Below are positions 1,875-24,897 of a stretch of 64,000 bases of DNA, piece by piece. Both the position numbers and the translations under genes were made by a program. The stretch comes from Deltaproteobacteria bacterium (GTDB lineage: Bacteria > Desulfobacterota > DSM-4660 > Desulfatiglandales > HGW-15), in assembly GCA_016931115.1 (NCBI GenBank), contig JAFGFM010000094.1, positions 15,063 to 79,062 on the forward strand, in the 5' to 3' direction. The notes below the pieces were generated by a model. It saw nothing but the letters and a program-made list of their open reading frames with translations, did not search any database and was not told the origin of the DNA. How positions within the stretch are numbered: the first letter of the stretch is position 1; every line of letters starts with the position of its first letter.

Positions 1875-1897
1875 ACATCAGGACAGCAGAATATTAA

Positions 1898-4617: not shown

Positions 4618-5834
4618 TTATTACAGGAATGGGTGCTGTCTCACCCTTTGGTCAGGGGAGTGAAATATTCTATGATTCTCTTGTAAAAGGCAGGAGCGGG
4701 ATAATATGTCATCCTGATCTTGCATCCATGGAAGGTGTCCGCTCAATGGTGGCAGGTAAAGTTAAAAATATAGACCCGATGATTATACCCAGAAAGTTTC
4801 GACGTTCCATGTCAGATATGTCAGTCTACTCTGTTCTTGCCTGCCAGGAGGCGCTCTCTATGGCAGGCATTTTTCCGGAAAATTATTCAAATGACAACAT
4901 GGGGATTGTCCTCGGGTCGACAATAAACAGCATTGATACATTTGTTAATTTTTTCAATGATTACTTTGTTAATAAAAACATGGAGAACATGCGATCAACA
5001 ACCTTCTTTAAACTGATGAACCATTCCTGCGCCTTTAATGTCTCACAGGTCTTTGGTTTAAAGGGAAGGGTAATAGCCCCTTCTGCAGCATGTTCCACAG
5101 GTTGTCAGACAGTTGGTATTGGTTATGAGATGATAGCCTTCGGCAAGCAGGACTATATGCTGTGCGGGGGCGCAGATGAATATCATCCCTTTACCACCAT
5201 GTCTTTTGATCTGATCAATGCCGCTTCAACAAGCTATAATGGCTCTCCATCAAAAACCCCGAGGCCATTTGATCGTGACAGGGATGGAATGGTATGCTCT
5301 GAAGGGTGCGGGATACTGCTGCTTGAAACCCTTGAGTCGGCAAAAAAGAGGGGGGCTGAAATATTATCAGAGGTAATAGGGTTTGCCTCAACTGCAAATC
5401 CTGAAAATATCGCAAACCCCAGCGCTGAATCACTGATCGAGTGCATGAAAAAGGCATTGTCTGATGCAAATATATCTCCTCATGATGTTGACTATGTGAA
5501 TGCCCATGCGACTGGCACCATACAGGGAGATATTGAAGAGAGCAGGGCAATATACAGCGTTTTTGGGGGAGGTGTCCCGGTCAGCAGCCTTAAAGGGCAT
5601 ATTGGCCATACAATGGCAGCTAGCGGAAGCCTTGAATTGATTGCCTCTATTCATATGTTAAGAAAAAAAGAGGTAATACCTACCTTAAACCTTGAAAATA
5701 TTGATGATTTATGCAAGATAGTTAATTTTGTTCAATCTCTTGAAAAAAAAGAGATCAAATGTGTTTTAAAAAATAATTTTGCCCTTGGCGGGGTTAATTC
5801 ATGTCTGATAATACGGAGCTGTGAGCATGACTGA
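4599..5834 (+). CDS. beta-ketoacyl-ACP synthase (KS-2, Cys-His-His)
   Basis: PSAACSTGCQTVG active-site Cys. HATGTIQGD and GHIGHTMAASG His motifs. NNFALGGVNSCLII tail. Overlaps the upstream gene by 19 nt. Confidence 0.9.
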   Translation: MEPRRVVITGMGAVSPFGQGSEIFYDSLVKGRSGIICHPDLASMEGVRSMVAGKVKNIDPMIIPRKFRRSMSDMSVYSVLACQEALSMAGIFPENYSNDNMGIVLGSTINSIDTFVNFFNDYFVNKNMENMRSTTFFKLMNHSCAFNVSQVFGLKGRVIAPSAACSTGCQTVGIGYEMIAFGKQDYMLCGGADEYHPFTTMSFDLINAASTSYNGSPSKTPRPFDRDRDGMVCSEGCGILLLETLESAKKRGAEILSEVIGFASTANPENIANPSAESLIECMKKALSDANISPHDVDYVNAHATGTIQGDIEESRAIYSVFGGGVPVSSLKGHIGHTMAASGSLELIASIHMLRKKEVIPTLNLENIDDLCKIVNFVQSLEKKEIKCVLKNNFALGGVNSCLIIRSCEHD

Positions 5835-6090
5835 TGATGAAATTATAGATACCATAAACAGGGCGCTGGTAAAGGAGTTTGAGCTTGATAAAAAAAAGAT
5901 GCTTTCTGATGCCCATCTTTTTGATACCCTTGAACTGGATAGCCTTGATATGGTCGATATGGTTATTGTACTTGAAAATGCCTTCAAATTTAAAATAACC
6001 GAAGAAAAGGAGATCCGTGAAATCAGAACTCTTGGAGACATACATAATTTTGTAATTAAAAAAAGTAATGAGATCAGGAAGGGATCATAA
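5827..6090 (+). CDS. acyl carrier protein (ACP-1)
   Basis: Phosphopantetheine site LELDSLDMVDMV (DSL). 87 aa. ggag lies 8 nt before ATG 5827, while GTG 5821 in the track has no usable RBS spacing. Confidence 0.85.
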   Translation: MTDDEIIDTINRALVKEFELDKKKMLSDAHLFDTLELDSLDMVDMVIVLENAFKFKITEEKEIREIRTLGDIHNFVIKKSNEIRKGS

Positions 6091-6129
6091 TAATCCCTTT
6101 TCATTACCATCCTATGAAAGAAATGATAA

Positions 6130-6882
6130 ATGCCATTTGCAGGAAATTTTTCTATTTTGCTTATAAACCTGACGGTTTTTCCTCTCCTGATACTAATGAC
6201 TTTAGTAGGCATTATCATTTCACCATTTGCCTTTTTATTTTTTAAACTCATCGGAAACCTGGATAGAGTAAAAATCATCAGATATTTTGTATGGATTTAT
6301 GGAAAGGGGTGGCTTGCAATAATAAAACCCTTTACCGGTCTCACAGCCTCTGGTTTCAGAAGGGGAGAAATCCCTACCCCGTGCATAATTGTACTTAATC
6401 ATCTTTCCTTTTTTGATACATTTTTTATGGGAGTCCTTCCCTTCAGCAATGTTTGTTTTGCCCTGCGTTCATGGCCCTTTAAAATGGCCTGGTACCACCC
6501 CTTTATGAAGCTGGCTCAATACCTTGATGTGGAGAGACTTTCATGGGATGAGACACTCACTGCATCAAAGAAGATACTTAATGATGGCGGTGTACTTCTA
6601 CTGTTTCCAGAGGCTCATCGCAGCCGCGACGGCAGGATGGGCCGTTTTTATTCAGGGGCATTCAAGATATCCATCTCAACAAATTATCCGATTGTCCCTC
6701 TATGTATCACTGGTACTGGTGAGCTGTTGCCACCCGGAAGATGGTATCTGAAACCGGCGAAGGTTAAAATAAAGGCCCTTGCCCCTGTATATCCTGATGC
6801 CTTTACCGGTGAGAATGGCCACATTGAGATGCGTAAACATGTAAAAGCGCTTATTGCTGATGAAGTTGAACGAATGAGGTAA
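6130..6882 (+). CDS. 1-acyl-sn-glycerol-3-phosphate / lysophospholipid acyltransferase (PlsC family)
   Basis: HX4D motif NHLSFFDT and FPEAHRSRDG block. N-terminal membrane helices. Confidence 0.8.
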   Translation: MPFAGNFSILLINLTVFPLLILMTLVGIIISPFAFLFFKLIGNLDRVKIIRYFVWIYGKGWLAIIKPFTGLTASGFRRGEIPTPCIIVLNHLSFFDTFFMGVLPFSNVCFALRSWPFKMAWYHPFMKLAQYLDVERLSWDETLTASKKILNDGGVLLLFPEAHRSRDGRMGRFYSGAFKISISTNYPIVPLCITGTGELLPPGRWYLKPAKVKIKALAPVYPDAFTGENGHIEMRKHVKALIADEVERMR

Positions 6883-6892
6883 TTAGATATCA

Positions 6893-7336
6893 ATGAATAT
6901 AGTTACAAAATTACCAATATCTGCCGAGATGCTTGTTCCTCATCGGCCTCCCTTTCTTCTTGTAGATCGGTTGATTGAATTTTCCGGTGTGTCCGGTGTT
7001 GTGGAATCTTATATATCTATGGATAATCTTTTTGTTACAGAAGATGGTCACCTCAAGGAGATCGCCATGGTAGAGATACTTGCACAGTCAGCTGCTGCGG
7101 TTAAAGGCTACAGCGATTTACAGCAGGGTAAAGAGATAAGCATGGGTTTTCTCGTCGATATCAGGGGATTTAACTTTATAAAAAGATGCAATAAGGGTGA
7201 CACAATACAAACCAGGATAGAGATAACAAAGAGCTTTTCCGGTTTTTCTTTAATTAATGGTTCGCTGGTATGTTCAGGGAATGAGATTGCTTCAGGCTCT
7301 ATTAAATTATGGGTACCTGATGACAGTCAAAAATAA
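6893..7336 (+). CDS. hotdog-fold 3-hydroxyacyl-ACP dehydratase (FabZ/FabA-like, DH-1)
   Basis: N-terminal LVPHRPPFLLVDRLIEF, matching the FabZ LPHRYPFLLVDR signature. 147 aa. Confidence 0.8.
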   Translation: MNIVTKLPISAEMLVPHRPPFLLVDRLIEFSGVSGVVESYISMDNLFVTEDGHLKEIAMVEILAQSAAAVKGYSDLQQGKEISMGFLVDIRGFNFIKRCNKGDTIQTRIEITKSFSGFSLINGSLVCSGNEIASGSIKLWVPDDSQK

Positions 7337-7413
7337 GTTTTATTATGATGCGGTCGGGGATAAATCCTGACCCAGCCTATTTTTTCACAGGGTGGCTTTC
7401 TTGAACCATGATG

Positions 7414-7437
7414 TAGAGACAAGGCATGCCTTGTCTC
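7414..7437. repeat. perfect palindromic REP-like element, copy 1 (tagagacaaggcatgccttgtctc)
   Basis: gagacaaggcatgccttgtctc is its own reverse complement. The same core recurs at 13366 and 42155. A nearby hairpin ggtcggggataaatcctgaccc lies at about 7353-7375. Confidence 0.85.
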
Positions 7438-7482
7438 AGAAAGATGATGCTACCTTGTTTCAAACATGAGTGAGAAAAAATT

Positions 7483-8124
7483 ATGCCTAAACACAGAATC
7501 ATATTTTTAACCATTCTTTTTGTTTTCACAGCCTGGATTTCCGGTGATGAACAGGGTGTGTCAGCTGATGAAGTCAAAACAGAGGCAATACTTCTTCGTA
7601 TCAAGCAGGCATCTTCCAATATAGAATCGCTGGAGGGCGATTTTGTCCAGAAGAAGAAACTGGAAATCCTCAAGGATATGCCTGATTCGTATGGCAAACT
7701 ATACTATATGAGCCCGGGCCGCCTTCGATGGGAGATAACCGCGCCTGTGATCATGGGTTTCATAATAAACGGGGAGCATGGTAAAAAATGGCGCGGTAAG
7801 GATGGCAGGTCAATGAAATTTGACCTGAGCAGGGAACCTCTAATTGCAGCGATCTCAAACCAGGTGTTTTCATGGGCAAGAGGTGATTATGAGAGGTTAA
7901 AGGCAGGTTATGATATCTCGATCTTAAGTGAAGAGCCTGTTGAGATAAGACTGAGACCCATTTCGCCTGTGGAGCAAAAATATATAGAATCAATAGACCT
8001 TGCCTTTTCTGAAGAGGAGAGTCATGTAACAAAAATAGAGATAAACGATAAAAAGGGCGGCTCCACACAGATCAGCTTTTCCAATATGAAAATAAACCCC
8101 GGACTTTCAGAGGAAATTTTTTAA
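7483..8124 (+). CDS. LolA-like outer-membrane lipoprotein carrier protein
   Basis: Signal peptide. LolA-like pattern LEGDFVQKKKLEILKDMPDSYGKLYYMSPGRLRWEI. Position next to an MMPL exporter, as in aryl-polyene clusters. Confidence 0.65.
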   Translation: MPKHRIIFLTILFVFTAWISGDEQGVSADEVKTEAILLRIKQASSNIESLEGDFVQKKKLEILKDMPDSYGKLYYMSPGRLRWEITAPVIMGFIINGEHGKKWRGKDGRSMKFDLSREPLIAAISNQVFSWARGDYERLKAGYDISILSEEPVEIRLRPISPVEQKYIESIDLAFSEEESHVTKIEINDKKGGSTQISFSNMKINPGLSEEIF

Positions 8125-10536
8125 ATGGGTCTCTTTGACATATTCGGTCAGATATATCTCTTTTTTTCAAAAAGACGCCAGGCCCTTTTTGTGATCTCAG
8201 CTCTTGTAATCCTGTTAAGCCTTTTTTATCTTACAAAAATAAGGTTTTCAGAGGATATAAAATCGCTTTTACCGGATAGCAGAGAGGATTTTTTGCTTGA
8301 ATTCAATCTTCTCCAGCAGACCCCCTTTATGCATAAAGTCATAATAAATTTGAGGGAGAGGTCAGGAGCGGACAAAGAGGGGCTGACTGATGCAGCTGAT
8401 GATCTGGCAAAGGCAATTTCTGCCTCCCAATATTTCACCAGTGTTACTTCCGGGCCTGTATCGGATCAGAATTTCGATATCTATACCTTTATAGTTAAAT
8501 CAATCCCAAACCTGATAACCCGGAATGATCTCGAAGAAATAAGGGGATGGCTTACACCGGGACATGTACATGAAAAACTGCTGGAGAGGTATACCGGACT
8601 CTTTTCGCCTGAAGGCTCCATGATGATAGATGATATCAGGCTTGATCCACTTGATATAAAAACGCTTGTACTTAAAAAGCTTTCCTCACTGAATATAATT
8701 CCTGAGGGTGCCATTAAAAAGAACCACTTTATAGACCAGTCAGGGAGAAATCTGCTGCTGATAGCTGATACGTGCGTGGATGTCACTGATACCTTAAACG
8801 CTGAGAGGATGCTTGCCGAACTGGAGGAAATTAAAAAAAAGGCATTACCTGAAAACCTGGAAATGCTTATACTGAGCCCTCAAAGCTATACTGTTACAAA
8901 TACGCGGGCAATCAAGAAAGATCTTGTTGTTGTGCTTTCAATATCCTCATTATCCATGATCATACTTTTTTTCCTGTTTTTAAAAAACTGGCGCGCTATT
9001 TTTATACTCCTGATATCATTTTCGTCATTTACCATTGCCCTTGGAGGGGTATCAGTTATTTACTCTACCATATCTGCAATTACCATAGGGTTTGGTTCAG
9101 TACTGCTGGGGCTATCAGATGATCTCAGTCTGCATGTCTATTTTGCCCTGCGCAGGGATGGGGGGAGGTATGATGCAGGACATATTATGTCAGAGGTCTC
9201 CCGACCTGTCCTGTATGGCGGTCTTATAATAATCTGTTCTCTCTCACTGCTCCTGTTATCAGAGCTGCCTGGCCAGCGGCAGCTTGGGCTATTTTCCATT
9301 ATCGGTGTTATCACATCGCTTGTCTTTACCCTGGTATTGTTACCGCAGATGATGCGGGCGACCTCATCATCAAAAGAAATCAAATCCGATAATATCATCC
9401 TTGTAAAGGGTAAAACCAGCCGCCCCATACTCTATATCTCCCTGTGGATCATTATGATCATTGCATGTTTCTGGTCAGGAAAAGGAATAACCTTTGACGG
9501 TGATCTTAATAATCTCAATTACAGGTCTGATGAGCTTAAGTATATAGAGGGGTATATTAAAAGGACATGGGGGGATTTTAACAGCAGGGCAATGATATTT
9601 TCAGAGGGTGATGACCTGGAATCGGCCCTTATGGTCAATGAATCGCTTTATAATTACATTAAAGATGATTCAGGAAAAGAGACTATAATCAGTATTGCAC
9701 CTGTACTGCCATCGATCGAAACCCAGAGATCCAATATTGATACATGGAAATCCTTCTGGTCTGAAAATAAAAACATAGTAACCCGTATTTTTGAAAATGA
9801 GGGCAGCTCTATCGGGTTTACCCCTGATGCCTTTGACCCTTTTATAAAAAGCCTTGATGAATCACCCGATTTTATCACACCTGATACACTAAACAGGGCA
9901 GGGATATCAGCCCTGATAGATTCCCTTATCATACCCTACAAAGAAAAGATCAGGATTCTTACACTTGCCCCTGATAATGAGAGGATAAGGGCACTTTTAA
10001 AAGCGTCTGATTGCCCCGGTGGTGTGAGATTTGTATCGCAGGGTTATATAGGAGAGATGATCAGGAAGACAGTCGGGCATGATTTTGTCCATTTCATAGC
10101 TGGTGCACTGATTGTCATTTTGGTCCTACTGATCCCGCTTTTCAGGGATTTTAAAAAGGTGATGCTTAGCATGGTGCCTGTTGTTACAGGTGTGGTATTC
10201 ATGTTTGGAATAATGGGGTTATTTGATATAGCATTCAATATCTTTAATGTGATTTCATCGATATTATTAATCGGTCTTGGAATTGATTATGGTATATTTA
10301 TGGTATGCAGGTGTTCTGAGGATTATGAGCATGATACTGATACAGCGGTCCTTTTATCGGGCCTTACAACTGTTACAGGGTTTGGGGCGCTCATATTTGC
10401 AAGCCACCCTGCTCTCTATTCTATCGGTATAACTGTTTTACTGGGAATAGGGGCTGCAATACCCTCTGCTATATATGTTATCCCGGCCCTGTATCATTAT
10501 TTTGACAAAGGGGGCAAAAAGGTAGTATCTCTTTGA
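8125..10536 (+). CDS. MMPL/RND-superfamily predicted lipid exporter
   Basis: 803 aa with two hydrophobic multi-helix blocks separated by large soluble loops. Start ATG directly abuts the LolA-like stop. Confidence 0.8.
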   Translation: MGLFDIFGQIYLFFSKRRQALFVISALVILLSLFYLTKIRFSEDIKSLLPDSREDFLLEFNLLQQTPFMHKVIINLRERSGADKEGLTDAADDLAKAISASQYFTSVTSGPVSDQNFDIYTFIVKSIPNLITRNDLEEIRGWLTPGHVHEKLLERYTGLFSPEGSMMIDDIRLDPLDIKTLVLKKLSSLNIIPEGAIKKNHFIDQSGRNLLLIADTCVDVTDTLNAERMLAELEEIKKKALPENLEMLILSPQSYTVTNTRAIKKDLVVVLSISSLSMIILFFLFLKNWRAIFILLISFSSFTIALGGVSVIYSTISAITIGFGSVLLGLSDDLSLHVYFALRRDGGRYDAGHIMSEVSRPVLYGGLIIICSLSLLLLSELPGQRQLGLFSIIGVITSLVFTLVLLPQMMRATSSSKEIKSDNIILVKGKTSRPILYISLWIIMIIACFWSGKGITFDGDLNNLNYRSDELKYIEGYIKRTWGDFNSRAMIFSEGDDLESALMVNESLYNYIKDDSGKETIISIAPVLPSIETQRSNIDTWKSFWSENKNIVTRIFENEGSSIGFTPDAFDPFIKSLDESPDFITPDTLNRAGISALIDSLIIPYKEKIRILTLAPDNERIRALLKASDCPGGVRFVSQGYIGEMIRKTVGHDFVHFIAGALIVILVLLIPLFRDFKKVMLSMVPVVTGVVFMFGIMGLFDIAFNIFNVISSILLIGLGIDYGIFMVCRCSEDYEHDTDTAVLLSGLTTVTGFGALIFASHPALYSIGITVLLGIGAAIPSAIYVIPALYHYFDKGGKKVVSL

Positions 10537-10553
10537 TGCCCTGAGGTATGAGT

Positions 10554-10922
10554 ATGAAAAATCTGATAGAGGCTATAAAAAAATCGTCTGCCAAACCGGC
10601 CCAGATTAAAAGTCAATGGGAGATATCAAACTCCTACTGTTTTAATAATAGTTTTTTAGGTTTTTCAGGCCACTTCCCCGGATACCCCATACTTCCGGCT
10701 GTAATGCAGCTGCTTCTTGCACAATTGCTTATTGAAGAGCAGAAGGGCCATAAGATAGAGGTAATATCAATAGAAAAGGCTAAGTTTCTTTCTGAGATAA
10801 GGCCCAATGACCCGGTAACAGTTATCTGTACAAATGCTGATACAGATAATGGCCAGAGGAGTAAAGTAAAAATTGTATCAGGTGACAGGGCTGTATCCTC
10901 TTTCACTATCTGTTTCCGCTAA
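10554..10922 (+). CDS. hotdog-fold dehydratase-like protein (DH-2, probable partner of DH-1)
   Basis: FSGHFPGYPILPAVMQLLLAQL resembles the FabZ GHFPGxPImPGVL block. gagg lies 7 nt before ATG 10554, so I prefer it to the track start 10548. Confidence 0.65.
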   Translation: MKNLIEAIKKSSAKPAQIKSQWEISNSYCFNNSFLGFSGHFPGYPILPAVMQLLLAQLLIEEQKGHKIEVISIEKAKFLSEIRPNDPVTVICTNADTDNGQRSKVKIVSGDRAVSSFTICFR

Positions 10923-10939
10923 TTAAAGGAGAATATGAA

Positions 10940-11401
10940 TTGTTAAGGCCCTACTTTAAGAGCATGATAAATGCACCTCAGCCCCTCACTGTAAAGGTGG
11001 AACGGAGGGTAAGGTTTGAAGAGGTGGATCCTCTTGGTATTGTCTGGCATGGCCGTTACCCCAGCTTTTTTGAAGATGCAAGGGGCGCCCTTGGCGAAAA
11101 ATATGGGATCAGTTATCTGGATTTTTATAATAATGGTATTATTGCCCCCATAAAAAGGATGCATATTGATTACCACCTGCCCTTATCCTACCCGGATGTT
11201 TTTGTAATCGAGGGGATACTACACTGGTCAGATGCAGCAAGGATTGATTTTGAATATGTTATCATGGACAGTAAGGGGGCACTGCTGACAACAGGATATA
11301 CAGTACAGGTAATGCTTGATCCGAATAAAAATCTTTATATGGTTTTACCTCCTTTTTATATGGAGTTTTGTCAGAGATGGAAGAGAGGTGATTTTAAATA
11401 G
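10940..11401 (+). CDS. acyl-CoA/acyl-ACP thioesterase (4HBT/YbgC-like hotdog)
   Basis: VRFEEVDPLGIVWHGRYPSFFEDAR is the typical 4HBT N-terminal block. TTG start with aaggag 8 nt upstream. Confidence 0.75.
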   Translation: MLRPYFKSMINAPQPLTVKVERRVRFEEVDPLGIVWHGRYPSFFEDARGALGEKYGISYLDFYNNGIIAPIKRMHIDYHLPLSYPDVFVIEGILHWSDAARIDFEYVIMDSKGALLTTGYTVQVMLDPNKNLYMVLPPFYMEFCQRWKRGDFK

Positions 11402-12522: not shown

Positions 12523-12526
12523 TCTG

Positions 12527-13228: not shown

Positions 13229-13233
13229 ACTGA

Positions 13234-13307
13234 AGGGGCACGGCGCACCGTGCCCTTGAACGCGTAATGCACTTTGCTAAACAGGGCACGATGCCTCGTG
13301 CCCCTAC
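13234..13307. repeat. GC-rich double-hairpin element (GGGGC...GCCCCTAC family), copy 1
   Basis: aggggcacggcgcaccgtgccc ... agggcacgatgcctcgtgcccctac. Same architecture as 27533-27613 and 40100-40179. Confidence 0.75.
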
Positions 13308-13365
13308 GATAATGAATATTGAGGTGATAAATTGATAAAATTATCGATGGTGTTCCCTCAATGTA

Positions 13366-13386
13366 GAGACAAGGCATGCCTTGTCT
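13366..13386. repeat. palindromic REP-like element, copy 2
   Basis: gagacaaggcatgccttgtct preceded by atgta as in copy 1. Followed by ggtcagggataaaccctaccc at about 13397-13420, which is related to the hairpin near copy 1. Confidence 0.85.
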
Positions 13387-13469
13387 AAAAATAGAGGTCA
13401 GGGATAAACCCTACCCTATGGTTCGTGCATGAGAATAAAAATTAATTATTTATCGCATAGAGGAAAATT

Positions 13470-14735
13470 ATGAATCTGACACTTATATACCCCAAATGGC
13501 CAAAACTGGATCGACAGACAGAATTTCACCTTCCGCCCCATGGGCCTGTTGTCTTTGCAGCGGAGGTTCCCAAGGATGTTAATCTGCAATTTATTGATGA
13601 GACCTTTGAAGAGATTGATTACACAAGCGCAACTGATCTTGTTGCACTCTCTGTCATGCTTACATGCCAGGTACCCAGGGCCATAGAGATAGCTGAACAA
13701 TACCGGGCAAAAAAAATCCCTGTCATATTTGGCGGTATTGCAACCATGCTTCACAGTGAGGAGCTAATGAACCACAGCGACTCGGTTTTTCTGGGTGAGG
13801 TTGAGGGACGTTTTGGCCAGGTTATTGATGATTTCAAAAACAGGCGACTTCAAAAGGTATATAACTATATGAATAACCTCCCTGATATCAACCTTGTCGG
13901 GACCGCCAGAAGAGAAATATTGAATTCAGATTATTATGCCTACAGAGGTGTAAAGATGCTTGATCTCGTGCATGCATCAAGGGGATGTAAATTCAACTGT
14001 TTCCCCTGTTGTGTCGGATACCTTGGTGGAAGGGTCTTCCGGCCAAGGCCTGTTGACAGAGTGATGGAAGAGATGAGCTCCATTCAGAATAACCGGCTCT
14101 TTATTGTGGATAACTCCCTTGCACAGGAGCGAGACTGGCTGAAAAAGCTCTTTACTGCCATGATACCGCTTAAAAAGACATGGGTTTCCCACCCTATCAT
14201 GGATGACGATGAGGTACTCACCCTTGCAAAGGATGCAGGCTGCTGGTATGTGTACCAGGCAATAGTGAATACATCAAATGGAATAAGAAACCGTGTCAGG
14301 CGTCTCAAAGAACATGGCATAGGTGTTGAAGGGACTATCCTTCTCGGGACAGATGACCAGACCGAAGATGACATCAAGCGCCTTGTTGATTTTCTGCTTG
14401 AGATAGAGCTGGACATGGCCGAGTTCACAATACTCACTCCCTTTCCCCACAGCCCGATCCGTGCAGATTATGAGAAAGAGGGCAGGATTATTTCAAACAA
14501 CTGGCTTGATTATACCTGCGATAAGGTAGTTTTCAAGCCAAAAAAAATGTCACCTGATACCCTTTATAAAATGTACCACTATGCATGGGATACATTTTAT
14601 TACAATACAAGCCCCAGCCTTAAAATGAGCTTCCTTTTTAAGAAGGCTGTAATGAGCGAAATGGAAAAGGGCACATACCGGCAGTACAATCCGCGTAAAA
14701 AACGTTCCTTTGTAAACAGGGAGAACAATGAGTAA
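13470..14735 (+). CDS. B12-binding-domain radical SAM enzyme (rSAM-1)
   Basis: N-terminal cobalamin-binding-like Rossmann region (DLVALSVML...IPVIFGGIATM). CX3CX2C cluster SRGCKFNCFPCC. C-terminal DUF4070-like tail. Confidence 0.85.
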   Translation: MNLTLIYPKWPKLDRQTEFHLPPHGPVVFAAEVPKDVNLQFIDETFEEIDYTSATDLVALSVMLTCQVPRAIEIAEQYRAKKIPVIFGGIATMLHSEELMNHSDSVFLGEVEGRFGQVIDDFKNRRLQKVYNYMNNLPDINLVGTARREILNSDYYAYRGVKMLDLVHASRGCKFNCFPCCVGYLGGRVFRPRPVDRVMEEMSSIQNNRLFIVDNSLAQERDWLKKLFTAMIPLKKTWVSHPIMDDDEVLTLAKDAGCWYVYQAIVNTSNGIRNRVRRLKEHGIGVEGTILLGTDDQTEDDIKRLVDFLLEIELDMAEFTILTPFPHSPIRADYEKEGRIISNNWLDYTCDKVVFKPKKMSPDTLYKMYHYAWDTFYYNTSPSLKMSFLFKKAVMSEMEKGTYRQYNPRKKRSFVNRENNE

Positions 14736-16101
14736 GGTACTGATGATATCATCAAATACCTTTGCCTATTCATACCCGGTTTATCCTCTTGGCATGGCAA
14801 TGGTAACAGGTGCACTGAAAAAAAAGGGGCACAGTGTGGTTCAGTTTGATTATTCCGCCCATGAATATCCGGAAGAAGAACTGAGGAAGAGAATAATTGA
14901 TTTTGCACCCGATTACATCGGCATATCTGTAAGAAACATTGATGAAGTGGATTCAATGAGCATAGAGCCATCAGTGCTTGGCATTGAAAAAAGGATTGTG
15001 AGCATTATCAGAAACACAACCAGTGCTGCTATTATTATAGGGGGTTCAGCCTTTTCCATTATGCCTGAAGAGATTCTTGAATATACAGGCGCTGATTATG
15101 GCATTGTCGGCGCAGGAGAAGGTCAGGTAACAGGGCTCATAGAGTCTCTTAAACTTGGCAAACCTGTGCCCCGGATATCAAGGGGCTGCCCGCTTAATAT
15201 CGATTGCAGCAATAACATCTCCCCTGAATGGGAAAAGGTAATGGTTGATTTTTACATAAAGAAAAGCGGCATGCTTAATATCCAGACAAAAAGGGGGTGC
15301 CCCTATAACTGTTCATACTGTGTTTATCCATCCCTTGAAGGAAAGAGCTTCAGATATCGTGACCCTGATGCAGTGATATATGATATTAAAAGGGCATACA
15401 GTGAATTCAACGTGAATACCTTCTTTATTACCGACTCCATATTCAATGACCCTGAAGGCCATTACCTTGAAATCGCCGAAAAGATTATACAATCGGGTAT
15501 GAATATCAGGTGGGCAGGTTATTTCAGACCAAAAGGGGTGAGCCAGGATGAATTCAGGCTCCTTAAACGTTCAGGCCTTTATGCGGTTGAGGTAGGGGCA
15601 GACGCAGGTTGTGACCATACCCTTTATGAAATGGGAAAGGGTTTTACATTTGAGGATATTATGGGATTTTACCGGGGATGCCTTAATGAAGGGATAGCAA
15701 GCGCCTATTTCTTTATCTTCGGAGGTCCTGGTGAGACCGGCAAAACCATTGATGAAGGGTTAATTAACCTGAAACAGCTTGAACATGGTGTTATTTTTAT
15801 TTACTCGGGTATAAGGATTCTGCCCGGGACAGGGCTCTACAGGCTTGCATTAAAGGAAAATATTATTTCAGAGGAAGATTCACTGCTGAGGCCAGTATAT
15901 TATTTTTCACCGGGCATTGATGTTAATGAGATGAACAGAAAGATCATTGAGGAGGCGGAGAAAAACCGAAGGTATATTTTCCCCCCTGAAAAGGGCAAGC
16001 TCATGATTGATGCCATGCATGCATTCGGTTACAGGGGGTTGTTATGGGATGAGCTTCTCAAAGTAACCGGCAGGTCAGAAAGGCACAGGAAGAGGCACTA
16101 A
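14728..16101 (+). CDS. B12-binding-domain radical SAM enzyme (rSAM-2, lipid-biosynthesis type)
   Basis: N-terminal B12-like domain (DYIGISVRN...IIIGGSAFS). TKRGCPYNCSYCVY cluster. 8-nt overlap with rSAM-1. Confidence 0.85.
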   Translation: MSKVLMISSNTFAYSYPVYPLGMAMVTGALKKKGHSVVQFDYSAHEYPEEELRKRIIDFAPDYIGISVRNIDEVDSMSIEPSVLGIEKRIVSIIRNTTSAAIIIGGSAFSIMPEEILEYTGADYGIVGAGEGQVTGLIESLKLGKPVPRISRGCPLNIDCSNNISPEWEKVMVDFYIKKSGMLNIQTKRGCPYNCSYCVYPSLEGKSFRYRDPDAVIYDIKRAYSEFNVNTFFITDSIFNDPEGHYLEIAEKIIQSGMNIRWAGYFRPKGVSQDEFRLLKRSGLYAVEVGADAGCDHTLYEMGKGFTFEDIMGFYRGCLNEGIASAYFFIFGGPGETGKTIDEGLINLKQLEHGVIFIYSGIRILPGTGLYRLALKENIISEEDSLLRPVYYFSPGIDVNEMNRKIIEEAEKNRRYIFPPEKGKLMIDAMHAFGYRGLLWDELLKVTGRSERHRKRH

Positions 16102-16104
16102 AAG

Positions 16105-17550
16105 ATGGGGCATCCTGATTTCAAGAATATCCTGCTTGTTCATCCCCTTGGCTATAAAAAGAGTGCAGCCAGGCAGGATGTGTCAAGGCTTGCCAATATT
16201 ATGCCTCCACTAGGGCTGGCAAGTATATCCGCCTATCTTGAGCAGCGTGGGACAGAAACCGCTATTATTGACTCTTATGCAAACCCTGACTCAGACCTGC
16301 TCATACAGAGTTATCTGCATGAGAAAACGCCAGCATATTTAGGGATAAGCTGCACAACATCCAGTTTTCTTGATGGTGTCCGAATAGCATCCATGGCAAA
16401 AAAGGTGTTGCCTGAAATAAAAGTAATATTTGGCGGTCCCCATGTCTCGGCCCTCAAGGGAAAGATACTTGAAGGGTATCCTCTAATAGATTTTTGTGCT
16501 ATTGGTGAGGGTGAGGTGACACTCTCGGAACTGATAGAGTCAGGCGGGGAGGATGCTGCAAAGATTGAGGGGCTTGCATACAGGGATTCGGGGAATGGGA
16601 TTCATGTCAATTCATACAGGTCAAATCTACTTGAACTTGACAGGCTCCCCTTTCCTGCATATTCAAAACTGAATGGATATCCAGTTGCCTACATGCTCCC
16701 CATATTCAACTATCCCGTCTCCCCGAATACCAGCTGTATTTCCAGCCGGGGATGCCCTTATGCATGCAGTTACTGTGACAGGTCAGTATTTCAAAGAACC
16801 TTTCGATACAACTCTGCTGAATACCTTTATGAGCATCTGAGATATTTGAAAGACAGATTCAATATAAGGCATATAAATTTTTATGATGACCAGTTTACAT
16901 TTAACAGGAAAAGGGTAGAGGCCTTTGCAGGGCTGATGATTGCAAGGCCCCTTAATATGACATTCAACTGTGCTGTAAGGGCGGAACATATAGATATGGA
17001 TCTGCTCCTTTTGATGAAGAGGGCCGGATGCTGGATGATAAGCCTCGGTATAGAATCTGGTGATGACAAACTGCTCTCCATGCATCGACAGAATGTCAAT
17101 TCTGAAATGATGAGGGAAAAAATTCATATGATAAAAAAGGCCGGTATCAGGACAAAGGGGCTCTTTATGATAGGCCTGCCCGGTGAAACAGTTGAGAGCA
17201 TTAAAAGGAGTATAGCATTCTACAGCTCCCTGCCCATTGATGAGATAAACGTTGCAAAATTTACCCCCTTTCCCGGGACACCTTTATATGAAAAAATTGT
17301 CCGGTCAGGCGGATTTACTGAAGAGTGGGAAAAGATGGACTGCATGCATTTTTTGTATATACCTGAAGGGATGGATGTTCAAACCCTGGAAACCTATTTT
17401 ATTAAGTTTTATAAGGCCCATTTTTCAAGATTAAGAACTATTGTGAGCTATATATCCATGATCTGGAAATCTCCTGAGAGCTGGAAACGATTTATCGTAA
17501 GCATGAGGAGATTTCTCCTCTTTGCCAAAAGTAATAAAAGATTTAATTGA
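16105..17550 (+). CDS. B12-binding-domain radical SAM enzyme (rSAM-3)
   Basis: B12-like domain (YLGISCTT...VIFGGPHVS). SSRGCPYACSYCDR cluster. Starts 3 nt after the rSAM-2 stop. Confidence 0.85.
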   Translation: MGHPDFKNILLVHPLGYKKSAARQDVSRLANIMPPLGLASISAYLEQRGTETAIIDSYANPDSDLLIQSYLHEKTPAYLGISCTTSSFLDGVRIASMAKKVLPEIKVIFGGPHVSALKGKILEGYPLIDFCAIGEGEVTLSELIESGGEDAAKIEGLAYRDSGNGIHVNSYRSNLLELDRLPFPAYSKLNGYPVAYMLPIFNYPVSPNTSCISSRGCPYACSYCDRSVFQRTFRYNSAEYLYEHLRYLKDRFNIRHINFYDDQFTFNRKRVEAFAGLMIARPLNMTFNCAVRAEHIDMDLLLLMKRAGCWMISLGIESGDDKLLSMHRQNVNSEMMREKIHMIKKAGIRTKGLFMIGLPGETVESIKRSIAFYSSLPIDEINVAKFTPFPGTPLYEKIVRSGGFTEEWEKMDCMHFLYIPEGMDVQTLETYFIKFYKAHFSRLRTIVSYISMIWKSPESWKRFIVSMRRFLLFAKSNKRFN

Positions 17551-19760: not shown

Positions 19761-20018
19761 ATGACAATTAATATGGAAGAGCTGAAGGAGATAATTATAA
19801 AAGAACTTTTTCTTGAGGATATCACCCCGGGGGATATTGATGACAACGCACCCCTTTTCGGAGGGGGATTGGGTCTTGATTCCCTTGATGCAGTTGAACT
19901 GGTAGTTATCATTCAGAAACACTTTAATGTAGAAATAAAGGATATGGATGAGGGAAGGGTTGCATTTGAATCAATTAAATCACTTGCTTCGTTTATTGAG
20001 GAACATCAGAAATCATGA
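19761..20018 (+). CDS. acyl carrier protein (ACP-2)
   Basis: GLGLDSLDAVELV phosphopantetheine site. 85 aa. gaggag RBS 9 nt upstream. Confidence 0.85.
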   Translation: MTINMEELKEIIIKELFLEDITPGDIDDNAPLFGGGLGLDSLDAVELVVIIQKHFNVEIKDMDEGRVAFESIKSLASFIEEHQKS

Positions 20019-21214
20019 ACCGTGGCGCACCTGTTGCAATAACTGGAACAGGCTGTCTGAGCGCATCAGGGGAATCCCTGATGCAGAACATGAAAACTGT
20101 TTTTTCAGGTAAAAGGGCTCCTGGTAAGCCAGGGGCCTTTTCCTCTTCCCATCCAGTGATCTACCCGGTTTTTGAAATAAAATATCCTATTCCCCATATA
20201 AATGATCAGCATAAAAAATATCTCTCCAGGACAGCCCAACTGGCGCTGGCAGCCGCTGCTGAGGCCATTATGGATGCAGGGCTTGACACTGAGGCAATGA
20301 ATGGTCTCAGGGTCGGTGTATGCATGGGTACCACTGTAGGCAGTACAATGAATGATGAAAAGTTTTACAGGGATTTTAAAAACAGGCTTGAACCTGATAT
20401 GTCTGCCATAAGCCGATATCTTAATAGCAACCCCTCTTCGGTTATCTCTAAAGAGTATTCCCTTAAAGGGCCGTGCCAGACCATTGTAAATGCCTGTTCT
20501 TCCGGCACAGATGCTATTGGCATAGGTGCATCATGGATAAGGAGTGGTATATGTGACATTGTTATCGCAGGAGGCGCTGACGAGCTTAGCCGCATCTCAT
20601 ATAACGGGTTTATATCCCTGATGATTACTGATTCAGATCCATGCAGGCCATTTGACAAAAACCGCAAAGGCCTTAATCTGGGCGAAGGGGCAGGATTGGT
20701 GGTGCTTGAAAGTGAGTATTCACTCAAAAGACGCAATAAAAGGGCAAAAGCATTTGTCATTGGATATGGTTCTGCCAGTGACGGGTATCATCTTACTGCA
20801 CCACACCCGGAGGGAAGGGGTTTAAAAAGGGCCATTGCAGATGCATTTATTGAGAGTGGGAAAAAGGCCAGTGATATAGGCTTTATAAATGCACACGGGA
20901 CAGCAACACCTGAAAATGACCTGGCTGAGGCCAGGGTGCTGAGGGAAATATTCAGCGGTATACCTTTTCTCTCTACAAAGGGGTATACAGGCCACACACT
21001 TGGTGCAGCAGGGGCCATTGAGGCGGTATATACAGTGGCATCCCTTGAGGCAGGCCAGATCCCTGTCAGTGCTGGATTCTCAGAAATCGATCCTTATGCA
21101 GCCATTTCACCTGTGACTGAAAATACCGGTATAAGTCTCAAAACAGCCCTGTCAGAATCACTGGCATTTGGCGGGCAGAATGCAGTACTGATCCTGACCA
21201 CAGAAGGGATTTAG
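20015..21214 (+). CDS. beta-ketoacyl-ACP synthase (KS-4, Cys-His-His)
   Basis: VNACSSGTDAIG Cys, HGTATPEND and GHTLGAAGAIEA His motifs. ATGA overlap with the ACP-2 stop. Confidence 0.9.
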   Translation: MNRGAPVAITGTGCLSASGESLMQNMKTVFSGKRAPGKPGAFSSSHPVIYPVFEIKYPIPHINDQHKKYLSRTAQLALAAAAEAIMDAGLDTEAMNGLRVGVCMGTTVGSTMNDEKFYRDFKNRLEPDMSAISRYLNSNPSSVISKEYSLKGPCQTIVNACSSGTDAIGIGASWIRSGICDIVIAGGADELSRISYNGFISLMITDSDPCRPFDKNRKGLNLGEGAGLVVLESEYSLKRRNKRAKAFVIGYGSASDGYHLTAPHPEGRGLKRAIADAFIESGKKASDIGFINAHGTATPENDLAEARVLREIFSGIPFLSTKGYTGHTLGAAGAIEAVYTVASLEAGQIPVSAGFSEIDPYAAISPVTENTGISLKTALSESLAFGGQNAVLILTTEGI

Positions 21215-21215
21215 A

Positions 21216-22292
21216 ATGAAGATATATATCAATGGAACAGGTATTGCCGGGGGATTTGGTTGCGGTTCAAATGTGCTTTTGAATCGGCTCCATACAGGTG
21301 TTGCATGTGAGCCATCTTCACAGGATGGATATTATCCTGCCTTTCATGCTGATATCTCCTCTCTGTATGATTTTGTTCCAAAAAAGTCATTAAGAAGGAT
21401 AGACCATTTTTCACAGCTTGCCCTTACAGGTGCATATCTGACGTTTAATGAGGCTGGGCAGGATTCATTTGATAAAATGGCGACCGGCCTTGTTCTATGT
21501 TCAGGATATGGTTCAGCCAAAACAACCTTCTCCTTTCTTGATTCCATTATTGATTCTGGTGATATCTGTGCATCCCCAACTCTCTTTTCAAACTCGGTAC
21601 ATAATGCTGCTGCGGGGCACATCTCCATGATGCTTGGCATTGAAGGCCCATGCCTGACTGTCAGCCAGTTTGAGATATCTGTTTATTCAGGGCTGCTTAG
21701 CGCCATTCAATGGCTTCGTGAAGAGAGGGTGGGGCAGGTGCTTTTTGGTGCGGTTGATGAATATTTTGATGTTTTGGGCTACTGCTATCAGCGCAGGTAT
21801 GGAAGGAATAGCAATATCTCCATGTCACCACTTGCACCAGGGATTCAAAGCGCTGTGCCTGGCGAAGGGGCTGCATTTTTTCTGCTATCCCGTGACAAGG
21901 CAACAAACTGTTATGGGGCAATCACCTCTGTTAATACCGGCAGCGTAAAAGACTTTGATGACATCCTTCCTGAAGAGAGTTTTTATATCCTGAATGCAGA
22001 CGGGCATATTGAATCTGACAAAAATTACTCTAAAATTATACCAGAGGGCTCTCTGGTCTCATGCTATACCCCTTATTATGGCTCTATACCGACCGGGCCC
22101 GCCTTTGATATGGCAATAGCAGCCCTTTCACTAAGAGAGGGGCGGATTTTTCCCGTGCCGGTAAATGTGATACGCCCTGATAACTATCGAATTCCGGTAC
22201 AAGAGAGTACATTGAATCAAGGAAATATCTCATGTGTAAAGGCAGGAGTAAAGGGTGAATTCAGTATTATAACCCTGTCACACCCCGGCTGA
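21216..22292 (+). CDS. KS-like protein lacking active-site Cys (chain-length-factor-like partner, long form)
   Basis: Thiolase-fold length of 358 aa. The position of the ACSS motif reads TVSQFEISVYSG with no Cys. Starts 1 nt after the KS-4 stop. Confidence 0.7.
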   Translation: MKIYINGTGIAGGFGCGSNVLLNRLHTGVACEPSSQDGYYPAFHADISSLYDFVPKKSLRRIDHFSQLALTGAYLTFNEAGQDSFDKMATGLVLCSGYGSAKTTFSFLDSIIDSGDICASPTLFSNSVHNAAAGHISMMLGIEGPCLTVSQFEISVYSGLLSAIQWLREERVGQVLFGAVDEYFDVLGYCYQRRYGRNSNISMSPLAPGIQSAVPGEGAAFFLLSRDKATNCYGAITSVNTGSVKDFDDILPEESFYILNADGHIESDKNYSKIIPEGSLVSCYTPYYGSIPTGPAFDMAIAALSLREGRIFPVPVNVIRPDNYRIPVQESTLNQGNISCVKAGVKGEFSIITLSHPG

Positions 22293-22412
22293 TTATATAT
22301 GGCTATTCCCTGTATAAAATAGGTTTATGAATGTATCAGTAAAAAAGTTGCAGGTATTAATTCTGCCGGTAATGGCTTTAAAATATGATGGATGTATAAA
22401 CATGGAGGGGAG

Positions 22413-24896: not shown

Positions 24897-24897
24897 A

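Follow-up and report, generated by a model that had tools for sequence, protein, structure and literature searches.

The window (the whole 64,000-nucleotide stretch analysed here) contains three consecutive genes on the forward strand, designated rsA (13470..14735, 421 aa), rsB (14728..16101, 457 aa) and rsC (16105..17550, 481 aa). rsA and rsB overlap by 8 nt, and rsB and rsC are separated by a gap of 3 nt, which confirms the layout described in a first-pass annotation of this DNA. Each protein has an N-terminal Rossmann-like domain and a radical SAM barrel carrying the cluster motif CX3CX2C (RGCKFNCFPC in rsA, RGCPYNCSYC in rsB and RGCPYACSYC in rsC), the motif having likewise been noted before. 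The same two-domain architecture is found in the characterised class-B radical SAM enzymes TsrM, BzaD, HpnJ, BchE, AprD4, TokK, CysS and MgmA, but the cut-off of a characterised class-B family is reached by none of the three. Scores lie far under the family cut-offs, and none of the proteins is a housekeeping BchE, HpnJ or HemN orthologue, in line with the earlier view. The N-terminal domains had been described as cobalamin-binding-like. This holds for rsB and rsC, which exceed the Pfam gathering scores for both B12-binding and Radical_SAM, while rsA falls below them (27.2 vs 32.1 bits for B12-binding, 23.2 vs 29.5 bits for Radical_SAM), yet has a model fold of the two-domain class-B type.

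The three genes had also been called tandem diverged paralogs. They are indeed adjacent and diverged, but pairwise identity among the proteins is 23-27%, which rules out a local triplication of one radical SAM gene. In NCBIfam comparisons, outside families outscore the other two triad members for each protein. On these two results, the triad represents three separate old families and not recent duplicates: rsA belongs to an unannotated, highly conserved class-B-like family, rsB is a member of TIGR04072, and rsC is nearest to HpnJ and BchE.

[quoted passage not shown] Both members are FabF-type by NCBIfam. KS3 (11518-12522) keeps the active-site Cys (ACASS) and His motifs; CLF3 (12482-13228) lacks the Cys and is truncated to the N-terminal domain. 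The 241-nt CLF3-rsA spacer contains two GC-rich hairpins on the forward strand, GGGCACGGCGCACCGTGCCC and GGGCACGATGCCTCGTGCCC (13234..13305), for which the chance expectation is 0 matches. A comparable hairpin is present in the corresponding spacer of locus L001, and a search of the spacer hairpins found no Rfam family and no riboswitch. On the 3' side, NCBIfam identifies a GT2 glycosyltransferase with a C-terminal TIGR03546 membrane domain (17565-18743) and an LpxL-type acyltransferase (18724-19659), so that the triad sits, as first reported, between a KS/CLF pair and GT2/acyltransferase genes. In locus L081 the homologues of these two genes are annotated Glycos_transf_2+DUF2062 and Lip_A_acyltrans. 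The pair fits the roles proposed for ApeJ and ApeD in the aryl-polyene (APE) cluster (PMC8253772, followed here for ApeD, J, K, L and M).

Further downstream are ACP2, KS4 and CLF4 (19761..22292; KS4 has the Cys, ACSSG, and CLF4 does not), a PagL-like outer-membrane lipid deacylase (22392-22988; Pfam PagL, 75 bits) that is kept at the same position in most loci, a BamE-domain protein (23033-23605; Pfam BamE, 24.7 bits), and a GT28/UDPGT-type glycosyltransferase (23688-24896). This last gene is followed by a fourth radical SAM protein, with alpha/beta-hydrolase, radical SAM and SPASM domains (24898-26652), which was overlooked when the cluster was said to have three radical SAM genes. The GT28/UDPGT-type and fourth radical SAM genes directly adjoin the triad in L030, L071, L055, L061 and L032. 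A divergent polysaccharide deacetylase gene on the reverse strand (26661..27386; NCBIfam deacetylase matches) is probably the cluster edge, and the gene beyond it is the housekeeping gene EttA. The upstream half of the cluster (1146..11401) encodes FabG, KS1, a CrtI-like FAD oxidoreductase, KS2, ACP1, a PlsC-type acyltransferase, DH1, a LolA-like protein, an MMPL/RND exporter, DH2 and a 4HBT thioesterase, in an order retained in Desulfatiglandales and other loci. The description of the triad as translationally coupled class-B-type radical SAM proteins within a type II KS/CLF/ACP assembly line therefore stands.

The arrangement of the triad is not due to chance, since the A-B-C order recurs in 56 of the 64 evaluable loci from other genomes, in Desulfatiglandales, Desulfuromonadales/Geobacter, Syntrophus and Holophaga. 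A-B spacing is mostly between -4 and 33 nt, and the triad is set between TE-KS-CLF and GT2-LpxL-ACP-KS-CLF-PagL, with exceptions in some loci. Natural variants lacking B and/or C also occur, and some genomes have rsA with neither; the three steps are therefore not obligatorily linked. In L078, rsA and rsC are still accompanied by FabG-DH-DH-TE-KS-CLF and KS-CLF in a neighbourhood from which GT2, LpxL and MMPL are absent, which argues for the chain rather than the anchor as substrate.

The Desulfuromonadales cluster adds an aromatic ammonia-lyase, an AMP-ligase and ApeP/ApeI-like dehydratases, and on the strength of these genes it is predicted to be an aryl-polyene cluster. The lyase and ligase are common to about 25 loci; in L081 the triad is surrounded by Lyase_aromatic, AMP-binding, ApeP-like, ApeI-like, LolA, MMPL and 4HBT genes. 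No aryl-starter genes are present anywhere in the 64-kb window, which carries the CrtI-like oxidoreductase and extra KS genes, and its chain may therefore differ from an aryl polyene. The FabG and LolA of the window score just under the cut-offs for flexirubin FlxB and LolA2 (LolA2_flexi).

Neither the cluster nor its set of radical SAM genes is novel. The cluster is a new example of a widespread, described yet uncharacterised "ladderane-like"/aryl-polyene-type lipid cluster of anaerobic bacteria. Synteny of the cluster, including radical SAM genes, between Kuenenia and Desulfotalea, Geobacter and Pelobacter was described by Rattray et al. in 2009 (PMC2649909), the deltaproteobacterial cluster being the counterpart of the Kuenenia stuttgartiensis kuste3335-3352 operon; a curated NCBIfam model exists for rsB; and antiSMASH calls such clusters 'ladderane' BGCs in Desulfobacterota and other non-anammox phyla (PMC9902471). 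Compared by published gene content and descriptions rather than by protein sequences, the window matches kuste3335-3352 in a glycosyltransferase, a phytoene-desaturase-like FAD enzyme, FabZ-like proteins, ACPs, FabG, adjacent radical SAM genes, an MMPL-like membrane protein, and canonical and non-canonical FabF. kuste3351 is described as polysaccharide-deacetylase-like (PMC2649909), as is the gene at the border of the window's cluster, and the deltaproteobacterial taxa agree with those of the window's relatives. There are also differences. Two radical SAM genes are named in Kuenenia (kuste3342 and kuste3343, homologues DP1853 and DP1855), whereas the window has three adjacent ones and the SPASM-type fourth, and of the genes listed for Kuenenia the window lacks those for the phenylacetyl-CoA-ligase and the SAM-methylase. 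With APE/flexirubin clusters such as E. coli ape (PMC8253772), the window's cluster type shares KS/CLF heterodimer genes, two ACPs, a KR, two small dehydratases, a 4HBT thioesterase, GT2+DUF2062, an LPLAT/LpxL-type acyltransferase, a LolA-like protein and an MMPL exporter. Radical SAM genes are absent from classical APE clusters, which rely on the SAM methyltransferase ApeB (PMC8253772). The earlier statement that the chemistry is uncharacterised for this cluster type still applies: the searched literature contains proposed roles for its radical SAM enzymes and no characterisation.

One such proposal, made in 2009 for Desulfotalea and Kuenenia, places the shared radical SAM enzymes before or after polyunsaturated chain synthesis, in oxygen-independent desaturation or processing that leads to polyunsaturated fatty acids or hydrocarbons. 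D. psychrophila, which carries a syntenic cluster, contains C31:8 and C31:9 hydrocarbons (Rattray et al., PMC2649909), and the CrtI-like oxidoreductase of the window would suit such a route. However, APE-type KS/CLF, KR and DH logic gives conjugated double bonds without a desaturase (PMC8253772). No new fatty acids appeared when the Kuenenia genes were expressed in a heterologous host, and expression of kuste3342 and kuste3343 was undetectable. In other bacteria C31:9 hydrocarbons are made by a Pfa synthase and OleABCD, so the Desulfotalea correlation is weak, and we consider this proposal quite improbable.

rsB matches TIGR04072 ("lipid biosynthesis B12-binding/radical SAM protein", short name rSAM_ladder_B12) over its full length with 588.6 bits against a cut-off of 360, followed in NCBIfam by BzaD (210 bits) and a Trp 2-C-methyltransferase family (127 bits). 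Its best solved relative is TsrM (E 9e-29). Because Ile occupies the position of TsrM Glu273, which we take to be the ligand that blocks SAM binding in TsrM, rsB is probably a true radical generator. BzaD and TsrM, its nearest characterised families, methylate aromatic sp2 carbons, and by this analogy rsB is the best candidate in the triad for a cobalamin-dependent C-methyltransferase. The name of its family points in another direction, namely that the triad makes C-C bonds within a polyene by a radical route (cyclisation or cross-linking), mechanistically akin to the proposed formation of ladderane cyclobutanes. Of the three current proposals for ladderanes, one invokes radical-SAM cyclisation of a polyunsaturated chain bound to an ACP, and some class-B enzymes, such as BchE and the GDGT ring synthases, form C-C bonds without methylating. 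This is nevertheless very unlikely here: the window's genes have their closest relatives in Desulfatiglans MAGs and not in anammox bacteria, kuste3603-3608, regarded as central to ladderane synthesis, are reported to be unique to ladderane-producing (anammox) bacteria, and D. psychrophila has the syntenic cluster but no detected ladderanes (PMC2649909).

rsA reaches none of the NCBIfam models. Its AlphaFold model is of moderate confidence (pLDDT 67, pTM 0.68) and matches AprD4, MgmA and TsrM, all structures of the two-domain class-B type, with identity to solved structures of only about 13-17%. The top match is AprD4, presumably a cobalamin-independent enzyme. In a 50%-clustered library only two full-length representatives have at least 49% identity to rsA, and the next relatives have at most 37%. 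The sub-threshold Pfam domains, a Pro where an aromatic residue normally precedes the third Cys, and the conserved tight translational coupling with rsB would fit a heteromeric complex in which one subunit is a non-catalytic scaffold or chaperone, rsA being the most plausible of the three for this part. We regard such a role as highly improbable, given that C173, C177 and C180 of CX3CX2C are invariant across 18 homologues, as are the beta-2 (VDNS) and GxIxG-like (EGTILLGTDDQ) positions, that rsA is the best conserved of the triad (66-86% identity across Desulfobacterota, Acidobacteriota and Nitrospirota), and that it occurs without rsB and rsC. In two Acidobacteria loci, rsA homologues (69% identity) stand alone: their neighbours are a PHP protein, another radical SAM gene and the nuo operon, and no gene of the cluster lies within 10 kb. 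Two further Acidobacteria loci have no cluster gene in the available sequence. rsA may thus act independently of polyene substrates.

rsC (58-71% identity in other loci) scores 195.9 against HpnJ over its full length (cut-off 577.6), 179.3 against BchE (cut-off 481) and 172 against a P-methyltransferase family in NCBIfam, and membership of HpnJ or BchE was rejected on these scores. Its best PDB matches are AprD4 (2e-22) and TokK (8e-17). HpnJ and AprD4, its nearest characterised relatives, act on amino-sugars and not on acyl chains, which counts against chain tailoring. At least rsC might thus modify the sugar head group of a glycolipid anchor. The adjacent GT2 would install an amino-sugar, the polysaccharide deacetylase at the cluster border would free it, and rsC would either contract its ring, like HpnJ, or deoxygenate it, like AprD4. 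The GT2 gene starts within 14 nt 3' of rsC, and in L081 the two overlap by 11 nt. Hopanoid biosynthesis offers a parallel in HpnI (a glycosyltransferase), HpnK (a deacetylase) and HpnJ. However, rsC reaches a third of the HpnJ cut-off and scores nearly as high against BchE and the P-methyltransferase family, so no specific affinity to HpnJ is indicated. rsC also occurs without an adjacent GT2 in the Holophaga loci, L025, L027, L040, L046 and L047, and without GT2 or LpxL in L078, while L002 and L075 have GT2 without rsC. We therefore think a sugar-head role unlikely.

Our preferred reading, to which we give a probability of about 0.6, is that rsA, rsB and rsC are three class-B-type radical SAM enzymes, non-orthologous and diverged long ago, that form a conserved, translationally coupled tailoring module in an aryl-polyene-like type II PKS/FAS cluster. 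Observation supplies the domain content, the family assignment, the conservation of both the triad and the genes around it, and the gene-content match to the published Kuenenia/Desulfotalea cluster. Among the points against this reading are that cobalamin binding of the triad proteins cannot be inferred from sequence and that the cluster type has no member with a known product. The cluster would build a polyene acyl chain on its dedicated ACPs and attach it to a (glyco)lipid anchor, and the LolA-like and MMPL proteins would export the lipid to the outer membrane. The triad most likely tailors the polyene, bound to ACP or lipid, by radical chemistry. Each enzyme would cleave SAM reductively and functionalise a C-H or sp2 carbon of that polyene, or of the aryl head where one exists, rsA and rsC presumably catalysing non-methylating or further alkylating steps. 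The first-pass annotation envisaged that an ACP-bound polyunsaturated chain is modified three times in succession, which would be plausible. The aryl head group, where present, and the glycolipid anchor are equal candidates as substrates, the anchor because of the amino-sugar enzymes related to rsC. In strict anaerobes, the triad module would replace the SAM-methyltransferase tailoring of aerobic APE clusters.

The triad consists of three consecutive radical SAM genes on the forward strand, rsA (13470-14735, 421 aa), rsB (14728-16101, 457 aa) and rsC (16105-17550, 481 aa). The coordinates agree with the first-pass annotation, with an 8-nt overlap between rsA and rsB and a 3-nt gap between rsB and rsC, and the three CX3CX2C motifs quoted there are all present (RGCKFNCFPC, RGCPYNCSYC and RGCPYACSYC, respectively). 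The genes are flanked, as had been claimed, by the ketosynthase/chain-length-factor pair KS3/CLF3 upstream, and by a GT2 glycosyltransferase and an LpxL-type acyltransferase downstream. The N-terminal B12-binding-like domain attributed to all three proteins scores above the Pfam gathering score of 32.1 bits in rsB and rsC (PF02310, 61.5 and 68.4 bits), while rsA falls below it, at 27.2 bits. The same is true of the Radical_SAM domain (54.2 bits for rsB, 83.1 for rsC and 23.2 for rsA, against a gathering score of 29.5).

Despite these sub-threshold scores, rsA is a bona fide two-domain protein of the class-B radical SAM type. The cysteines of the CX3CX2C motif, together with the beta-2 and GxIxG-like positions, are invariant in an alignment of 18 rsA homologues. 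The AlphaFold model of rsA is of moderate quality overall (pLDDT 67, pTM 0.68), and its N-terminal Rossmann part is modelled with confidence. The structures that match the model best are AprD4, the MCR glutamine methylase MgmA, TsrM, MiaB, CysS and TokK. We know of no diagnostic sequence motif for the binding or use of cobalamin, and AprD4, the top match, is not known to contain it. The cluster motif of rsA (residues 173-181) reads CxxxCFPCC, with a proline before the third cysteine where an aromatic residue is usual, and an additional invariant fourth cysteine, C181.

The three genes had been described as tandem paralogs. They are adjacent and diverged, but a local triplication by recent tandem duplication is ruled out: pairwise identities are 23-27%, over partial alignments, and in NCBIfam scores each protein matches outside families better than the families of its neighbours. 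On these sequence comparisons, the triad is made up of three distinct old families. rsB matches TIGR04072 with 588.6 bits (cut-off 360), residues 3-445 aligning to model positions 1-443. This family is named "lipid biosynthesis B12-binding/radical SAM protein" in NCBIfam, with the short name rSAM_ladder_B12; rsA (47.7 bits) and rsC (107.5 bits) are both below its cut-off. For rsB the next best matches are to BzaD, with 210 bits, and to the Trp 2-C-methyltransferase family, with 127 bits; its scores against HpnJ and BchE are 96.5 and 78.6 bits. rsC scores 195.9 bits against HpnJ (TIGR03471, cut-off 577.6), 179.3 against BchE (TIGR02026, cut-off 481.35) and 172 against a P-methyltransferase family, which is roughly one third of the family cut-offs. 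rsA has no NCBIfam score above 55 bits (46 for HpnJ, 38 for BchE). A housekeeping identity of the BchE, HpnJ or HemN type is ruled out by scores so far under the cut-offs. The first reading had named, as an outcome that would count against it, a close grouping of the proteins with housekeeping enzymes of the BchE or HemN type; this is seen neither in the family scores nor in the matches to solved structures.

Sequence matches to solved class-B structures are unambiguous for rsB, for which the nearest is TsrM (E 9e-29), and for rsC, which matches AprD4 (2e-22) and TokK (8e-17); rsA barely matches AprD4 (4e-4). Glu273 of Kitasatospora setae TsrM is said, in the paper describing its structure, to sit on the unique iron and to account for the non-radical chemistry of that enzyme. 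In rsB this position is occupied by Ile (TDSIFN, aligned to TDSEFN in TsrM). A TsrM-like non-radical mechanism is thus disfavoured, and the substitution suggests that rsB generates radicals in the ordinary way.

Each of the three proteins has thousands of homologues. A scan with the rsA alignment, covering 185,579 species with a single genome each, found 417 stretches encoding a relative, and all the window cluster proteins were compared by tblastn with the best 80 of these loci. The closest are from Desulfatiglans and other Desulfatiglandales (82-86% rsA identity), and the remainder are from Desulfuromonadales, Geobacter, Geopsychrobacteraceae, Syntrophus, Syntrophorhabdus, Holophaga and other Acidobacteriota, with a few others. 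Cultured strains of Desulfuromonas and Geoalkalibacter are among the carriers. Many of the loci keep the order thioesterase-KS3-CLF3-rsA-rsB-rsC-GT2-LpxL-ACP2-KS4-CLF4-PagL, which is thus widely conserved. Sixty-four of the best 80 loci had enough downstream sequence to be evaluated, and 56 of these carry all three genes in the order A-B-C, with A and B in three, A and C in two, and A alone in three. The spacing between rsA and rsB is mostly -4 to 33 nt, implying that translational coupling is conserved along with the module.

The apparent partial triads comprise a Desulfatiglans locus in which rsA is followed directly by GT2 (L004), two loci lacking rsC (L002, L075) and two lacking rsB (L043, L078). 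Two Acidobacteria loci (L024, 8800-14600; L053, 120-6000) carry a solitary, 69%-identical rsA homologue. It is flanked by genes for a PHP-domain protein and for a radical SAM protein whose zinc ribbon is of the HMPTM type, with the nuo operon next, and the rest of the cluster is absent within 10 kb. In two further Acidobacteria loci (L049, L057) rsA is likewise without a cluster gene in the sequence searched. The first-pass annotation had suggested three successive modifications, one for each protein. This simple picture is weakened by the apparent natural variants without B and/or C and by the solitary rsA genes.

Although rsA is the weakest Pfam match of the triad, it is the most conserved member, with identities across loci of 66-86%, compared with 58-71% for rsC and 41-64% for rsB. 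In a library clustered at 50% identity, 584 proteins match rsA with E < 1e-30. Just two full-length representatives are at least 49% identical, and the next relatives are at most 37% identical and match BchE, TIGR04013 and HpnJ weakly. This identity gap, with the weak matches of the relatives beyond it, indicates that rsA forms a tight, unannotated clade within a BchE/HpnJ-like radiation.

The triad lies within a polyene-lipid assembly and export cluster, which by NCBIfam and Pfam assignments runs from 1146 to 26652 on the forward strand. It begins with FabG, KS1, a CrtI-like FAD oxidoreductase, KS2, ACP1 and a PlsC-type acyltransferase. These are followed by a small dehydratase, a LolA-like protein, an MMPL/RND exporter, a second small dehydratase, a 4HBT thioesterase and KS3/CLF3. 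After the triad come GT2 (with a C-terminal TIGR03546 membrane domain), the LpxL-type acyltransferase, ACP2, KS4/CLF4, a PagL-like deacylase, a BamE-domain protein, a GT28-type glycosyltransferase and a fourth radical SAM gene. Two proteins score just under flexirubin families, namely FabG (FlxB, 324.6 bits, cut-off 340) and the LolA-like protein (LolA2_flexi, 113.8 bits, cut-off 125). The two small dehydratases have no Pfam match, and no methyltransferase was found in the cluster.

KS3 and CLF3 (11518-13228) form an unusual, split-looking pair that is conserved in other loci, with reading frames overlapping by 41 nt. KS3 is N-terminally short (334 aa, aligning to FabF from about model position 140), yet its catalytic Cys and its two His motifs are retained; CLF3 (248 aa) lacks the Cys and is truncated, consisting of the N-terminal KS domain only. 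The fourth radical SAM protein (584 aa) is a fusion of alpha/beta-hydrolase, radical SAM and SPASM domains, whose best NCBIfam matches are metalloenzyme-maturase-type SPASM families, far under their cut-offs. By domain matches it is paired with the GT28/UDPGT-type glycosyltransferase (23688-26652, forward strand), and this pair directly adjoins the triad in five other loci (L030, L071, L055, L061, L032). A divergent polysaccharide deacetylase on the reverse strand (26661-27386), next to EttA, probably closes the cluster.

At 241 nt, the spacer between CLF3 and rsA (13229-13469) is unusual, as the operon is elsewhere tightly packed. Within it lie two 20-nt GC-rich hairpins (GGGCACG-N6-CGTGCCC), along with a third palindrome. 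The same spacer of a Desulfatiglans locus (L001, 9900-9990) contains a related hairpin, GGGGAACGGCGCACCGTGCCC, and another palindrome. In most of the other loci fetched the spacer is shorter than about 150 nt, and in the Desulfuromonas carbonis-type locus (L081) CLF and rsA overlap by 4 nt. A search of the whole window with Rfam gave no match at the gathering threshold and a single spurious miRNA match (E 0.2); the spacer therefore contains no cobalamin riboswitch or other known RNA by Rfam. There are no further copies of the hairpins in the window, ruling out a dispersed repeat. They may act within the operon as an element for processing, stability or attenuation.

The window cluster shares much with aryl polyene (APE) and flexirubin clusters: KS/CLF, ACPs, ketoreductase, ApeI/ApeP-type dehydratases, thioesterase, GT2 with DUF2062, LPLAT, LolA-like protein and MMPL exporter. 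The roles proposed for the E. coli ape cluster, namely elongation by KS/CLF, ketoreduction, two dehydratases and release by a thioesterase, with ApeD and ApeJ attaching the product to a glycolipid-like anchor and ApeM and ApeL exporting it (PMC8253772), map onto window genes. In L081, the precomputed gene calls upstream of the triad are Acyltransferase, AMP-binding, Lyase_aromatic, ApeP-like, LolA, MMPL, ApeI-like, 4HBT and KS/CLF, and those downstream are GT2+DUF2062, Lip_A_acyltrans, ACP, KS/CLF and PagL. With these gene sets, L081 is a true cluster of the aryl-polyene type, and its starter module is in the flexirubin style. The lyase and ligase, which L081 (164-3149) has after its PlsC-type acyltransferase and ahead of the first dehydratase, occur in about 25 of the fetched loci, in versions from Desulfuromonadales, Geobacter and Geopsychrobacteraceae, and the aromatic ammonia-lyase is 75-91% identical among loci. 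In contrast, the window (stretch compared, 6130-7336) and its Desulfatiglandales relatives lack them, and have FabG-KS1-CrtI-KS2-ACP1 upstream of the PlsC-type acyltransferase. A tblastn search of the 64-kb window with the L081 lyase and ligase gave no match. The aryl starter supply of APE and flexirubin clusters (ammonia-lyase or 4-HBA route, plus an ApeH-type AMP-ligase) is thus missing, so that the window cluster is a starter-less APE-type variant, whose chain may not be aryl-capped.

Clusters of this type are not new. Rattray et al. (2009) described extended FASII clusters with radical SAM genes in Kuenenia stuttgartiensis (kuste3335-3352). They reported that synteny with Desulfotalea psychrophila is striking and that Geobacter and Pelobacter carbinolicus have clusters resembling these; the radical SAM genes common to Kuenenia and Desulfotalea are kuste3343/DP1855 and kuste3342/DP1853 (PMC2649909). 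The published Kuenenia list contains a glycosyltransferase, phytoene desaturase, FabZ, ACPs, FabG, two radical SAM genes, a membrane protein of no assigned role, canonical and non-canonical FabFs and a deacetylase-like protein (PMC4790861). Judged by this list, the window agrees well in gene content with the Kuenenia/Desulfotalea type, which the same deltaproteobacterial groups carry, except that it lacks the phenylacetyl-CoA ligase and SAM methylases. When the Kuenenia genes were expressed in E. coli, no new lipids appeared, and neither kuste3342 nor kuste3343 was detected (PMC4790861). The genome papers on Pelobacter and Geobacter contain no discussion of the cluster.

According to a paper from 2023 and to a preprint and a review from 2026, none of the radical SAM enzymes of these clusters has been characterised, and the anammox-specific kuste3603-3608 is now the favoured ladderane locus; Cluster I is reported to be unique to ladderane-producing (anammox) bacteria. 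The window differs from that system: its contig is labelled a Deltaproteobacteria MAG, its closest loci are from Desulfatiglans and Desulfatiglandales, and it is not of the kuste3603-3608 type. There are no anammox entries among the best matches listed for the triad. Gene clusters annotated as 'ladderane' have been reported, and are expressed, in Desulfobacterota and other non-anammox phyla, with no function assigned (PMC9902471). The 2026 review gives ladderanes and the jawsamycin enzyme Jaw5 as the sole cases in which radical SAM modification has been proposed for a ketoacyl (fatty-acid-type) lipid, and notes that the ladderane enzymes have resisted expression. In the literature searched, no characterised product was found for APE-type clusters that carry B12-radical SAM genes, and nothing on TIGR04072. 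The first-pass statement that the chemistry of this cluster type is uncharacterised therefore holds, but both the cluster type and the idea of radical SAM remodelling of a polyunsaturated chain were already in print.

Its position suggests that the triad tailors an ACP- or lipid-bound polyene, or the aryl head in starter-bearing variants, by radical chemistry. rsB would be the best candidate of the three for a cobalamin-dependent C-methyltransferase, given that the characterised families nearest to it methylate aromatic sp2 carbons, and that an ApeB-type enzyme is missing from the cluster. In E. coli the aryl head is methylated by ApeB, an ordinary SAM methyltransferase (PMC8253772). rsA and rsC belong to a lineage (BchE, HpnJ, AprD4) rich in non-methylating reactions. 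By analogy with HpnI/HpnK/HpnJ, rsC could act on an amino-sugar of the anchor, a reading to which the adjacent GT2 and the polysaccharide deacetylase lend support. The chain is nevertheless favoured over the anchor as substrate. In L078, rsA and rsC stay with a FabG-DH-DH-TE-KS-CLF core (DH, dehydratase; TE, thioesterase) while GT2, LpxL and MMPL are absent from the neighbourhood, and GT2 is not adjacent in several Holophaga and Geobacter loci.

In other, less likely readings, the triad would contribute to oxygen-independent desaturation, as proposed in 2009, or would catalyse C-C cyclisation of the polyene, or one of its subunits would be non-catalytic. Desulfotalea makes C31:8 and C31:9 hydrocarbons and does not make ladderanes (PMC2649909). 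We consider it unlikely, at about one chance in eight, that A-B-C carries out radical C-C bond-forming or skeletal chemistry without characterised precedent on a conjugated polyenoyl-ACP, giving an undescribed class of outer-membrane lipid in anaerobic Desulfobacterota and Acidobacteriota, with rsA as a new functional class-B-like family.

The original observation is thus confirmed, and its interpretation is supported in part. The cluster, here in a Desulfatiglans-like MAG, belongs to a known and widespread type whose function is unsolved. That the triad genes exist is in itself not surprising. What is added is the recognition of three old families, an unannotated and exceptionally conserved rsA, a fourth radical SAM gene, partial-triad variants and culturable carriers, and the finding of the triad inside true aryl-polyene clusters in Desulfuromonadales, with the window as a starter-less form. 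The triad is a widespread non-anammox relative of the ladderane-associated radical SAM gene sets. Its presence in culturable Desulfuromonas, Geoalkalibacter and Geobacter makes the question of its chemistry experimentally accessible. Should the unlikely reading of unprecedented skeletal chemistry hold, the module could serve as a practical model system for the radical steps that have been put forward for ladderane biosynthesis. Solving this chemistry would identify the product of a common anaerobe cluster that genome-mining tools now label 'ladderane', would give a function to three uncharacterised radical SAM families, and would possibly inform the ladderane question itself.
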